A stretch of 14,302 nucleotides of DNA from Cytophagales bacterium (GTDB lineage Bacteria > Bacteroidota > Bacteroidia > Cytophagales > Thermoflexibacteraceae), in NCBI GenBank assembly GCA_013297565.1, contig JAAFHK010000055.1, positions 1 through 14,302 on the forward strand. The letters are read 5' to 3'. Under the pieces are notes generated by a model. The model worked only from the letters and a program-made list of their open reading frames with translations, did no database searches and was not told the origin of the DNA. The translations under genes and the position numbers were made by a program. Of the stretch, positions 6,841-9,421 are shown in pieces. Each line of letters begins with the position of its first letter. Positions within the stretch are counted from its first letter, which is position 1.

Positions 6841-9421
6841 AAAACCACCCAATCCCATGCACCACACCGCCGCCCTCGAACACCTCAAAAAACACACAGC
6901 CCTCACAGACCTCAAAGAAGTAGAGATCGAGAAAATATGGAATAAAAATACCTATTCCCTTGATACAGAGGGCAATCTGATTGGTTTGAACCTTGATGAC
7001 AATAAACTCACGAAGATTGATTTCGTAGCCGAACTCAAAACTTTGCAAATCTTATCTTTTTCCGCTAATCAGGTTTCCGATATTTCGCCTGTAAAGGAAT
7101 TGACGAATTTGCAAAAATTATATTTTTACGCTAATCAGGTTTCCGATATTTCGCCTGTAAAGGAATTGACGAATTTGCAAGAATTATATTTTTACGCTAA
7201 TCAGGTTTCCGATATTTCGCCTGTAAAGGAATTGACGAATTTGCAAGAATTAGATTTTGCCTATAATCAGGTTTCCGATATTTCGCCTGTAAAGGAATTG
7301 ACGAATTTGCAAAACTTATCTTTTCGAAATAATCAGGTTTCCGATATTTCGCCTGTAAAGGAATTGACGAATTTGCAAAAATTATATTTTTACGCTAATC
7401 AGGTTTCCGATATTTCGCCTGTAAAGGAATTGACGAATTTGCAAGAATTATATTTTTCCGCTAATCAGGTTTCCGATATTTCGCCTGTAAAGGAATTGAC
7501 GAATTTACAAAACTTATATTTTTCCGCTAATCAGGTTTCCGATATTTCGCATTTAAAAACGGTCTTGGCTTTGCCCAAATTAAAGTATTTATACGCCTTC
7601 GGCAATCCTATTGCGGGGATTCCTATCGAAAAATTAGGGAAAGGAATAAATGATAATTGCCTCGAAGACTTGCGCAATTATTTCAAACAAATAGCCGAAC
7701 AAGGCACAATCCAAGTTTATGAGGCAAAAATGATTTTGGTGGGCGAAGCGGGTACGGGCAAAACTACCCTCCGCAAAAAACTCATCGATCCCGCCTATCC
7801 CGTACCTAATCCCGAAGACGAAAAAAACTCGACACACGGCATCGAGATTACGCCTGCGGTGGCTTTTGCCCACAGTCCGCAGGCTATTTTGGCGAATATT
7901 TGGGATTTTGGCGGACAGCACAACTACTATTCTACGCACCGTTATTTCCTAACCGAATGGGCATTGTACGTGCTGGTCGTGGACGAACGCAAGGAAAATA
8001 CCCGTTACGATTATTGGTTTCAGATCATCGACCTCTTGGCAAAAGACAAGAAAAGCGATCAAAAATTGCCGATTGTCTTGCTTTATAACAAAAGAAGCGG
8101 ACAACCGATGAAATACTTGGATTTGAACGAATACCAAACCAAATTTCCTGATTTGGAAGTCCATTCTATCGACTTGGATTTTTCGGAATCCGATTGGGGT
8201 TCGGAACGCCTACGCAACTTGTTGAGCCGCAAATTGGCTGTTTTGGGGCATATTGGCGTAGATGTTCCTGCTTTGTGGCTACCGATCCGCAGGGAATTGG
8301 AACGCAGACGAAGCGCGGAAAAGGCAAATTATATCGACCGAAAAACCTTTTTTGAAATTTGCGAAGACGAAAAATTAAAGGATACCGAAGACCAACTGTA
8401 TTTGAGTAAGTTTTTGCACCAAATCGGGATTATTTTGCACTATCAAGAGGGAAGTGATGCCCTTGCTCGCATGGTTATTCTCAATCCCGATTGGGCAGTG
8501 GATGCGGTATATGCCGCCCTAAGCGATAGGGAAAAAATAAAACAAGGTTGCTTCAAATTTCCCCGCCAATGGCTGATCGATTTTTGGAAAGGAAAAGGCT
8601 ATAAATTGGACGAATACGAGGCTTTTTTGAATTTGATGTTCAAAAACCAATTCGAAATTGCCTACGAACATACAGACAAGAACAAGGAAGTTTGGGTAAC
8701 AGTTCCCGACTTGCTGTCCGCCAAACGCCCGAATTACGATTTTGACAAAACGGAAAATTTGGTTTTTCGTTACCATTACGAATTTATGCCCGAAGGTTTG
8801 CTTACGCATTTTATTGTTCGAATGAGTGAGTTTATTTGGGAAATAGCAGGCGAACAAATGGTTTGGAAAAACGGTGTTGTGTTGGATAACCGCAAAGGCA
8901 CACAAGCCGAAATTAGGCGTTTGGATTTGGAAGGAAACCGCAAAATTTCGTTTGAAATACGGCTAAACGGCACAGAAAAGGAATATTTTTTGGCACGAAT
9001 CCGAGAGGAATTTGAAACCGTAAATTTGCGTTTTTCGGCAAAACTAAAACCTACCGAATTAATTCCTTGTAATTGTTCGGAATGTAAGGAAAGCGAAACA
9101 CGGCATTTGCATAAATACTTGAAATTGTTGGAATGGGAAAAAGACGGTAAAAAAGCGCAATGCGGAGAAAGCGGCGATTCTATAGAAATTAGCCCCATGC
9201 TCAAAGGCATTTTGGATACTAAAAAGCTGAAATACAAATACTTAAAAGACCTGATAGAGAAAAACAATATGTCTGGTTTTTATGAAGAATTGGATCGATT
9301 GGGCATTTCTGAAAATCAAGTTTCGCAATTTAAGCAAGAATTTATTTGGGACGGCGGCGATTTTAAATACGCTGAACGTTTGAAAGTTTGGTTAGGGGAA
9401 AGGTTCAAAAAAGAGGTTTGA
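6830..9421 (+). CDS. Roco-family protein: N-terminal leucine-rich repeats (8 x 22 aa), a Roc (Ras-of-complex) GTPase domain, a COR domain and a Cys/His-containing C-terminal region. The start is uncertain. Candidate ATGs are at 6800, 6830 and 6857, and the tracker start at 6770 is a TTG.
   Basis: The LRRs have the form LTNLQxLxFxxNQVSDISPVKE. There is a P-loop MILVGEAGTGKTTL, a switch-I Thr (STHGIEIT) and a G3 motif WDFGGQ. A G4-like motif LYNKRSG follows. The COR-like segment runs LWLPIRRELERRR...FEICEDEKLKDTEDQLYLSKFLHQIGIILHYQEG...MVILNPDWAVDAVYAAL. A C-terminal PCNCSECKESETRHLHKY cluster is present. The stop is at 9419-9421. Confidence 0.8.
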   Translation: MLHQKPPNPMHHTAALEHLKKHTALTDLKEVEIEKIWNKNTYSLDTEGNLIGLNLDDNKLTKIDFVAELKTLQILSFSANQVSDISPVKELTNLQKLYFYANQVSDISPVKELTNLQELYFYANQVSDISPVKELTNLQELDFAYNQVSDISPVKELTNLQNLSFRNNQVSDISPVKELTNLQKLYFYANQVSDISPVKELTNLQELYFSANQVSDISPVKELTNLQNLYFSANQVSDISHLKTVLALPKLKYLYAFGNPIAGIPIEKLGKGINDNCLEDLRNYFKQIAEQGTIQVYEAKMILVGEAGTGKTTLRKKLIDPAYPVPNPEDEKNSTHGIEITPAVAFAHSPQAILANIWDFGGQHNYYSTHRYFLTEWALYVLVVDERKENTRYDYWFQIIDLLAKDKKSDQKLPIVLLYNKRSGQPMKYLDLNEYQTKFPDLEVHSIDLDFSESDWGSERLRNLLSRKLAVLGHIGVDVPALWLPIRRELERRRSAEKANYIDRKTFFEICEDEKLKDTEDQLYLSKFLHQIGIILHYQEGSDALARMVILNPDWAVDAVYAALSDREKIKQGCFKFPRQWLIDFWKGKGYKLDEYEAFLNLMFKNQFEIAYEHTDKNKEVWVTVPDLLSAKRPNYDFDKTENLVFRYHYEFMPEGLLTHFIVRMSEFIWEIAGEQMVWKNGVVLDNRKGTQAEIRRLDLEGNRKISFEIRLNGTEKEYFLARIREEFETVNLRFSAKLKPTELIPCNCSECKESETRHLHKYLKLLEWEKDGKKAQCGESGDSIEISPMLKGILDTKKLKYKYLKDLIEKNNMSGFYEELDRLGISENQVSQFKQEFIWDGGDFKYAERLKVWLGERFKKEV
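7034..7561 (+). repeat. Eight tandem 66-bp coding repeats, one LRR each. A 48-bp core is 100% identical in seven copies. Differences are confined to four codons per unit.
   Basis: The core aatcaggtttccgatatttcgcctgtaaaggaattgacgaatttgcaa repeats at 66-bp period from about 7067. The variable codons give K/E/N, Y/D/S, Y/A/R/S and A/Y/N in LTNLQ-x-L-x-F-x-x-N. Confidence 0.9.

Follow-up and report, generated by a model that had tools for sequence, protein, structure and literature searches.

A contig of 14,302 nucleotides from a Cytophagales bacterium (JAAFHK010000055.1, assembly GCA_013297565.1), analysed over its whole length and hereafter called the window, encodes a Roco protein with an array of leucine-rich repeats (LRRs), in which the internal repeat units are identical in DNA sequence except at four codons each. 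It is probable, in our estimation, that this array forms the ligand-binding solenoid of a cytoplasmic Roco (AP-GTPase/COR) switch protein that senses invaders, and that it is subject to concerted evolution with selection for diversity of the binding face. The observations that carry this reading are the anatomy of the repeats, the domain architecture of the protein, the homogenization of arrays within lineages, and the recurrence of the same pattern in independent lineages. Homologous proteins and their loci are designated below by P and L numbers, respectively, the protein of the window being P0001.

A single tandem array is detected by Tandem Repeats Finder at 7042-7557, with a period of 66, 7.8 copies, 92% matches and 0 indels. 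Split at 7034, it resolves into eight in-frame 66-bp units of 22 codons each at 7034-7561, with the consensus LTNLQxLxFxxNQVSDISPVKE, and degenerate LRRs flank it on both sides. A preliminary description of this DNA had placed a 48-bp core in seven of the eight units; the near-identity of the core is borne out, although the exact core measures 45 bp in seven units (TAATCAGG...GAATTT; at 7066, 7132, ... 7462) and 49 bp in six, unit 8 having a synonymous change of TTG to TTA at 7507. Nine columns vary among units 2-7 (columns 16, 18, 22, 23 and 28-32), all of them in codons 6, 8, 10 and 11, which encode K/E/N, Y/D/S, Y/A/R/S and A/Y/N, respectively, just as had been listed. The accompanying claim that all differences fall in these four codons applies to units 2-7 but not to the edges of the array, where unit 1 also differs in codons 1-3 (besides having Ile at codon 6) and the last four codons of unit 8 have diverged (HLKT). 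The fifth x position of the LRR motif (codon 5, Gln) is constant in this array. The mean pairwise DNA identity of units 2-7 is 93.3%, with a scaffold that is 100% identical; units 2 and 6 are identical to each other, and the longest exact repeat in the array extends over 128 bp, others being 71 bp and 49-54 bp in length. No open reading frame (ORF) of 80 aa or more is found in the ORF list on the opposite strand over the array, nor is any Rfam RNA family found in the window. When the variable columns are placed at random, the probability that all nine fall within the 12 columns of codons 6, 8, 10 and 11 is 6e-9; it is 1.4e-7 when the five x codons of LxxLxLxxN are set a priori, and 0.004 when each of the at least four haplotype changes of the variable island is counted as a single event. 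The pattern in the array is thereby confirmed to be real and non-random.

The location of the changes and the silence of the scaffold point to selection on the face residues. At least 12 substitutions are found among the units, at most one of which is synonymous, and all of them are in x codons, with none at the approximately 68 synonymous sites of the scaffold; in units 2-7 the proportions of synonymous (pS) and non-synonymous (pN) differences are both 0 in the scaffold, while pN is 0.43 in the x codons. Under neutrality this distribution between x codons and scaffold synonymous sites has P = 5e-4, a value that presumes independent point changes and that becomes weaker if multi-base codon changes came as patches. 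Several of the variable codons differ at two or three bases (TAC/CGA, GCT/TAT), and their third positions are almost constant, as expected under selection on amino acids. A young amplification of one unit, after which unconstrained surface positions drifted neutrally with neither selection for diversity nor ongoing conversion, would also suit a scaffold pS of 0, and the x positions are the least constrained ones in all of the LRR arrays, those of secreted proteins included. The ratio of non-synonymous to synonymous changes in the window array, 11:1, is by itself not distinguishable from neutral, and was dropped as a test of selection because it is underpowered against a neutral ratio of about 3:1. 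Neutral x sites, however, should not outpace synonymous ones, whereas at least 11 non-synonymous x-codon changes are seen here against none in the silent scaffold, and the multi-base differences within x codons also speak against drift. Moreover, the same regime is found in older arrays that do have synonymous variation in their scaffolds (P0004, P0008 and P0007), which argues for a maintained process rather than a one-off event. Drift alone is accordingly judged quite improbable, and selection on the face residues, which the preliminary description had already proposed, is the reading that we infer as the most economical one.

The arrays of relatives indicate how the scaffold has become uniform. 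The homologous array of P0004, from a Thermoflexibacter metagenome-assembled genome (MAG; L001), has the same repeat consensus and differs from the consensus of the window at 10 of 51 scaffold columns, mostly synonymously, and these differences are largely uniform across the P0004 units. Similarly, the scaffold of the window, which is 100% identical internally, shares only 80% identity with the consensus of the homologous arrays in P0004 and P0008; the differences are for the most part synonymous and array-wide. Since synonymous sites differ between lineages yet are identical inside the window array, homogenization or recent expansion is indicated rather than a constraint on the DNA, in agreement with what had been supposed from the window alone. 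Such a pattern marks, as judged from these alignments, either concerted evolution or recent expansions that took place independently. At codons 6, 8 and 10, I-S-S is found in the first unit of all three arrays (window, P0004 and P0008), so that positional orthology is retained at the edge of the array, and the degenerate LRR at the end of the domain is conserved among relatives together with the cap; edge units would escape because unequal exchange homogenizes internal units only. Turnover of the units can be seen directly: a 177-bp block that recurs within the array with a single mismatch (Table 1) is what a recent duplication or conversion of two units, with their variable islands, has left behind. 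Neighbouring identical units are also present in P0004 and P0007, and four-gamete violations occur between codons 6 and 11. As duplicated blocks carry the islands with them, drift and exchange alone would homogenize the islands too, and hence something must create or keep the differences.

A programmed mutator directed at the x codons, such as a diversity-generating retroelement (DGR), would be one way to create them, as the changes are extremely localized and DGRs are used by some conflict systems in related bacteria (PMC7159879). No reverse transcriptase domain is found in the nine large ORFs of the window that were scanned, however, and there is no template-like copy of a unit on either strand in the 14.3 kb. 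The variable bases are not restricted to adenine, T, G and C positions varying as well, and the near constancy of the third positions in the variable codons is what selection on amino acids, rather than a mutator acting at the level of bases, would be expected to produce. The retroelement and template hypothesis was rejected on these grounds, and any programmed mechanism of this kind is hardly credible here.

A further explanation is that the number and order of the units, and perhaps some of their combinations, were produced by short-read assembly. The exact repeats of 128, 71 and 49-54 bp are near or above the usual k-mer sizes, and the loop formed by units 3-5 can be traversed any number of times. 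Among the fetched loci, L012 ends inside its array (the only one to do so; the contig of L008 begins about 320 bp upstream of its array), and the array of L003 contains a frameshift and 3-bp deletions; repeats of this kind require long reads (PMC12222747). The array of the window is, on the other hand, in the middle of its contig and in frame, with its edge units and caps intact. An artefact would be unable to restrict variation to four codons, errors of polishing would homogenize the islands too, and the same pattern is found in independent assemblies and organisms. Unit count and order are dependent on the assembly in view of the 128-bp exact repeat, whereas the restriction to four codons is not an assembly product; as an account of the pattern, an artefact is therefore considered unlikely.

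The gene lies within an ORF of 6770-9421, and its start at 6857 agrees with the N-terminus of P0009. Pfam matches in P0001 follow the order LRR_4 (seven stretches), Roc (PF08477, 4e-18), COR-A and COR-B, and the best solved relative is the Roco protein of Chlorobium tepidum (CtRoco; 6HLU), with E = 6e-108 over residues 60-786. Roc is directly followed by COR, by which the protein is identified from its sequence as a Roco protein, as the preliminary description had recognized. The LRR part matches internalin A with E = 5e-92; NCBIfam internalin models are far under their cut-offs for P0001, and no functional assignment is obtained from NCBIfam. In an AlphaFold2 (AF2) model of residues 1-292, pLDDT is 85-96 over the repeats and every strand begins at codon 6 of a unit, so that the variable codons coincide with the x positions of the LRR strand, as had been proposed. 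In the standard geometry of LxxLxLxxN, the leucines are directed at the core, and the x residues between them at the concave surface. This geometry puts codons 6 and 8 on the concave face and codons 10 and 11 at its ascending edge. P0001 has no signal peptide or transmembrane segment; its N-terminus (MHHTAALEHLKKH...) is without a hydrophobic stretch, and the maximum KD(19) is 1.31 over the whole protein. The Roco protein is thus taken to be cytoplasmic, and in this respect the likeness to internalins that had been drawn does not hold, as the protein is not a surface antigen of their kind. The suggestion of phase-variable-like length polymorphism fails as well, since 66 bp correspond to 22 codons inside the ORF, whereby gain or loss of a unit stays in frame, and the protein is intracellular.

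The pattern of the window array is not special to this gene. A family-wide comparison of 97 homologues, each with five or more 22-residue units in a chain, reveals that positions 6, 8, 10 and 11 are the least conserved ones (identity 0.18-0.21), secreted non-Roco proteins included, and the array of the window is third for scaffold identity among them. P0066 (L010), an NNH1-NACHT-LRR protein from a GC-rich organism, has 13 units with a scaffold pS of 0.045 and an x-codon pN of 0.19; its 66-bp units (L010 7827-8684) vary only at codons 8 (D/Y), 10 (M/S/R) and 11 (N/S), and its scaffold pS stems from the diverged last unit, the remaining scaffolds being 100% identical. P0066 is thus more extreme than the window, and the same regime acts there on an ATPase of the STAND (signal transduction ATPases with numerous domains) class. 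P0057 (L008), with the order LRR-Roc-COR-EAD11, has nine units with a scaffold pS of 0.07 and an x-codon pN of 0.43. In P0063 (L011), a secreted non-Roco protein with nine units, the same positions are variable on an older scaffold (scaffold pS 0.31, x-codon pN 0.64), and P0008 and P0004 follow the same regime more weakly. Extreme homogenization is a recurring minority state, and the cases found are intracellular proteins linked to NTPases. Two further irregularities were encountered in these relatives. In the array of P0008 (L009 ~5700-5890), two runs of units are separated by about 65 aa of inserted non-LRR sequence (SSERLSYTPPSF...ENRYSSLS), and the Roc domain of P0009 (L004 1378-1470) contains a 42-bp tandem repeat of 2.2 copies with a PKGEGVKGEEI-type motif, a second and unrelated in-frame repeat.

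Variation between close relatives, for which the preliminary description had foreseen a strain comparison, was obtained only at a sister locus. In two Thermoflexibacter-like genomes, the loci of P0007 (L012 1-2950) and P0004 (L001 2346-5306) have flanks that are 95-98% identical in DNA, whereas their arrays differ in the order and the face residues of the units and comprise at least 16 canonical units in P0007, a lower bound because the contig of L012 ends inside the array, against 13 in P0004. Their Roc-COR regions are only 27% identical, and the two sequences become homologous again about 80 bp ahead of the stop codon, as if the cassette between the LRR array and the tail had been swapped. 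The pairs L004/L005 (100% identical) and L001/L002 (99.98% identical) are uninformative on the stability of the array. The protein of the window itself is a mosaic of modules. Its Roc-COR region is 63-66% identical to those of P0002 and P0003, which have other N-termini, LRR consensus sequences and tails, whereas P0009, with which it shares 53-63% identity in the N-cap, LRR and tail, is only 30% identical to it in Roc-COR; the GC content, about 0.34 in the LRR, climbs to about 0.47-0.49 where Roc begins. At the locus of P0002, the nearest relative in Roc-COR (L003 7397-10667), two units in an array of a different consensus have lost 3 bp (NQSDIS in place of NQISDIS), and a 1-bp frameshift within the array splits the gene into two called genes, 7397-8011 and 8001-10667; this locus is either a decaying gene or the site of a sequencing error in the repeat. 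These comparisons support the view that the family is highly dynamic, and they suggest that recombination may use the uniform LRR scaffold and the tail as its arms. A bolder proposal is that the scaffold is an active recombination substrate that shuffles, gains and loses units within a population and, together with the conserved tail, serves as a portable homology arm for swaps of Roc-COR between paralogues. The mosaic of the window protein and the core swap between P0004 and P0007 are compatible with such active recombination, though no proof of it, and the proposal is offered as a long shot. If true, it would provide a bacterial intracellular receptor with a germline recombinatorial repertoire, lineages or subclones carrying different concave faces.

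The LRR might instead have a signalling or scaffolding role outside immunity, by binding a fixed cellular partner or its own COR-B, with the units tuned to different parts of one surface and the uniform scaffold arising as a by-product of growth of the array. The LRR of CtRoco does touch COR-B in the inactive state, P0001 has neither a defence-model match nor an effector domain, and the flanking genes, which encode a homologue of the major vault protein (MVP), an orphan and a subtilase, are not obviously those of a defence locus. A fixed partner predicts a conserved face, yet the face residues, the number of units and Roc-COR all differ between flanks that are 95-98% identical at the sister locus; furthermore, the window protein is a mosaic of modules whose relatives carry TIR and EAD modules, and the family is classed among conflict systems in the literature (PMC8195603). 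A non-immune role is rather unlikely in our judgement, although slightly less so than an artefact of assembly.

Several points weigh against an invader sensor under selection for diversity. Variability at the x positions is generic to this class of LRR and is by itself no sign of an immune receptor. The face repertoire may be limited or old rather than newly invented, as different lineages have types of face residue in common (K/E/N at codon 6; 'FRNN', for which the Arg codons differ). Because the 11:1 ratio alone is not significant, the argument for selection depends on the location of the changes and the silent scaffold, and multi-base codon changes may each be single imported patches, which lowers the count of events to that of the haplotype-level P = 0.004. 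P0001 is a singleton cluster with no close relative in the collections searched, so that variation in unit number and face residues is seen at the sister locus and not at that of the window. The protein has no recognizable effector domain in Pfam and no PADLOC defence-model match at E <= 0.01, and a second copy of its tail outside Roco genes, which might mark a nearby partner, is absent from the window and the fetched loci. The G4 motif (window 8150-8170) reads NKRS, as opposed to NKID in 4WNR and NKTD in P0005 and P0009, so that the specificity or affinity for nucleotides, or their handling, may differ from that of CtRoco; this deviation is common to P0002 and P0003.

Beyond clusters of proteins, the Thermoflexibacter MAG is the only species-representative genome to match a degenerate DNA pattern for NQVSDISPVK[ED]LxNLQ, and no metagenome matches it; a protein-guided metagenome scan yields only one relative, of 36% identity. 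The C-terminal tail matches no Pfam family at E <= 1 and nothing in the PDB below E = 2.8 by Foldseek. It is common to P0009, P0065, P0008, P0005 and P0004, and other relatives carry EAD7, EAD11 or TIR in its slot. Assignment of the tail to an effector-associated domain (EAD) or a Death-like domain was rejected, the hhalign probability being 3% to EAD11 and 0.3% to EAD7.

Bacterial Roco proteins of known structure offer a model for how an invader sensor of this kind could work. CtRoco (6HLU, 8R4B) shares with the window protein the order LRR-Roc-COR-A-COR-B without a kinase and the 22-residue internalin-like class of LRR, and differs from it in that the G4 motif of the window is NKRS and its tail is a different helical domain of 69 aa. 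In the inactive nucleotide-free dimer of CtRoco, the LRR is folded back and contacts COR-B with its repeats 9-11; binding of a nanobody to the concave side is incompatible with this closed state (PMC11052575). In the mechanism proposed here, unequal recombination, slippage or gene conversion among the 66-bp units would duplicate, delete and overwrite internal units, leaving the internal scaffold identical even at synonymous sites while the two edge units escape. Selection would create or preserve different residues at codons 6, 8, 10 and 11, making the concave face a unit-by-unit mosaic, and this face would bind a variable partner, most plausibly a molecule of a phage or another invader. By analogy with the nanobody of CtRoco, a ligand on the concave face may stop the LRR from folding back on COR-B; the GTP-bound open state would then be favoured and might signal via the C-terminal helical tail.

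Fast-evolving repeats of this kind have precedents. 'Rapidly evolving' LRRs have already been described for bacterial AP-GTPase/COR proteins (Kaur et al., 2021; PMC8195603), systems found in filamentous Bacteroidota, whose genomes have many paralogues, as many as 11 (PMC8195603). The protein of the window shares with these conflict systems the fast-evolving N-terminal LRRs followed by an AP-GTPase and COR, and has homologues with TIR, EAD7 and EAD11, whereas its tail, in the slot of the effector or EAD, matches none of the named effectors or EADs, and no PADLOC match is found. Repeats of high internal conservation (HIC) in fungal and bacterial NOD-like receptors (NLRs) have units at least 80-90% identical, hypervariable positions on the binding surface and reshuffling (PMC4986451; bioRxiv 10.1101/2020.01.06.895854), the reshuffling being both cause and consequence of the conservation of the repeats (Dyrka 2014, PMC4986451; Dyrka 2020, bioRxiv 10.1101/2020.01.06.895854). 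The regime was described for WD and TPR repeats, prokaryotic NLRs being typically without LRRs (Dyrka 2020, bioRxiv 10.1101/2020.01.06.895854), and fungal HIC repeats assemble poorly from short reads (PMC12222747). The units of the window, at the identity given above and with variation on the predicted binding surface, resemble the WD40 repeats of HET-E/D/R in these respects, and the polymorphism of HIC repeats in number and order between close relatives has its counterpart at the sister locus of P0004 and P0007. HIC receptors differ in that WD40, TPR or ANK repeats are joined to NACHT or NB-ARC STAND ATPases, while here LRRs are joined to a Ras-like GTPase; neither a NACHT nor an NB-ARC match is found in P0001 with Pfam. 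The window protein works like HIC receptors but is not an NLR, as it has no STAND module. The closest eukaryotic functional parallel is the LRR-ROCO family of Ectocarpus, with shuffled repetitive LRR units and positive selection on residues of the concave face (Zambounis 2012, PMC3341825). In Ectocarpus, however, each LRR occupies one 72-bp exon, exons are shuffled and spare exons lie in introns, whereas the window has an uninterrupted ORF of 66-bp units.

Other systems are analogies only. Variable lymphocyte receptors (VLRs) and internalins bind through the same xxLxLxx face. VLR diversity originates from somatic copy-choice of flanking cassettes; the likeness to VLRs drawn earlier goes no further than analogy, for neither flanking donor cassettes nor a template copy is seen in the window. 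Unlike the cytoplasmic protein of the window, internalins have signal peptides and are either secreted or located at the surface. In TAL effectors the DNA repeats are near-identical too, with differences confined to the two ligand-contacting codons, but the fold is another one and binds DNA. The array of the window is, in all, a clean new example of a known fast-evolving receptor repeat, with no new mechanism.

The features of the gene are collected in Table 1. Its N-cap region is 53% identical to the N-terminus of P0009, and the degenerate copies have 62-78% identity (family D1).

Table 1. Features of the Roco gene, in positions of the window
Feature	Position	Strand	Basis
Roco gene, 854 aa + stop: N-cap, LRR, Roc GTPase, COR-A, COR-B, C-terminal helical tail	6857..9421	+	ORF list; identical to P0001 as called in NCBI; Pfam; 6HLU
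N-terminal helical cap and one degenerate LRR (6968-7033, EGNLIGLNLDDNKLTKIDFVAE)	6857..7033	+	Translation; AF2 helices 3-28, then strands
Unit 1, edge unit (LKTLQILSFSANQVSDISPVKE): 3' 34 bp homogenized, 5' end diverged	7034..7099	+	
177-bp block (units 2-3), repeated at 7330-7506 (units 6-7), single mismatch 7194/7458	7066..7242	+	Mismatch list at offset 264
Units 2-7, homogenized core; all variation in a 17-bp island (columns 16-32) per unit	7100..7495	+	
Unit 8, distal edge unit	7496..7561	+	
Degenerate terminal LRR (VLALPKLKYLYAFGNPIAGIPI), then C-cap and linker to Roc	7562..7627	+	Kept in P0009, P0004; AF2 strand 244-248
Roc GTPase: P-loop GEAGTGKT, DFGGQ present; G4 = NKRS	7727..8092	+	Pfam PF08477; alignment to 4WNR
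COR-A 8267-8716, COR-B 8753-9205	8267..9205	+	Pfam PF16095 1.5e-29; PF25497 2.9e-26
69-aa C-terminal four-helix tail	9212..9418	+	AF2 pLDDT 82, four helices

Upstream of the Roco gene, window 3659-6139 (+) encodes an 826-aa bacterial homologue of the eukaryotic MVP (MVP shoulder 2e-29, Vault_3, Band_7). It has thousands of homologues, the closest named ones being from Flammeovirgaceae, Bernardetiaceae, Cytophagales and Microscilla marina with 59-67% identity. These homologues place the organism in Cytophagales and, as none of the sampled relatives exceeds 67% identity, in a poorly sampled lineage of that order. Small toxin-antitoxin-like genes are located just upstream of several Roco genes: window 6266-6613 (-) has a weak sub-threshold UPF0150-like match, L001 594-2166 contains MNT/HepT and PIN genes, and L005 132-524 a HEPN gene. 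The downstream neighbour (window 9547-10596, -; 350 aa) is an orphan whose sole homologue among 5.8 billion clusters is itself, with a weak sub-threshold Kelch match. An A/T-flanked palindrome at 9484-9524 (AAAAAAAACAGCTATTTTTT / AAAAAATGGCTGTTTTTTTT) between the convergent Roco and orphan genes is probably a bidirectional terminator. A subtilase of family S8 with a fervidolysin-like prodomain is encoded at 11170-12564 (+), on the strand of the Roco gene and 1.7 kb downstream of it, and matches the PADLOC 'subtilase' model (4e-24).

Bacterial Roco proteins serve as structural models for LRRK2, and comparative work proposes that they are counter-invader sensors with fast-evolving LRRs. As a practical warning, the repeat number and order of such genes are untrustworthy when taken from short-read metagenome assemblies. 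The combination of a constant scaffold with four variable positions per repeat resembles a designed binding library, and marks the residues for swapping or randomizing in a search for the ligand. Together with the sister locus, the array of the window suggests that the HIC regime of the WD40, TPR and ANK repeats of fungal NLRs also acts on the LRRs of bacterial Roco and NACHT proteins.

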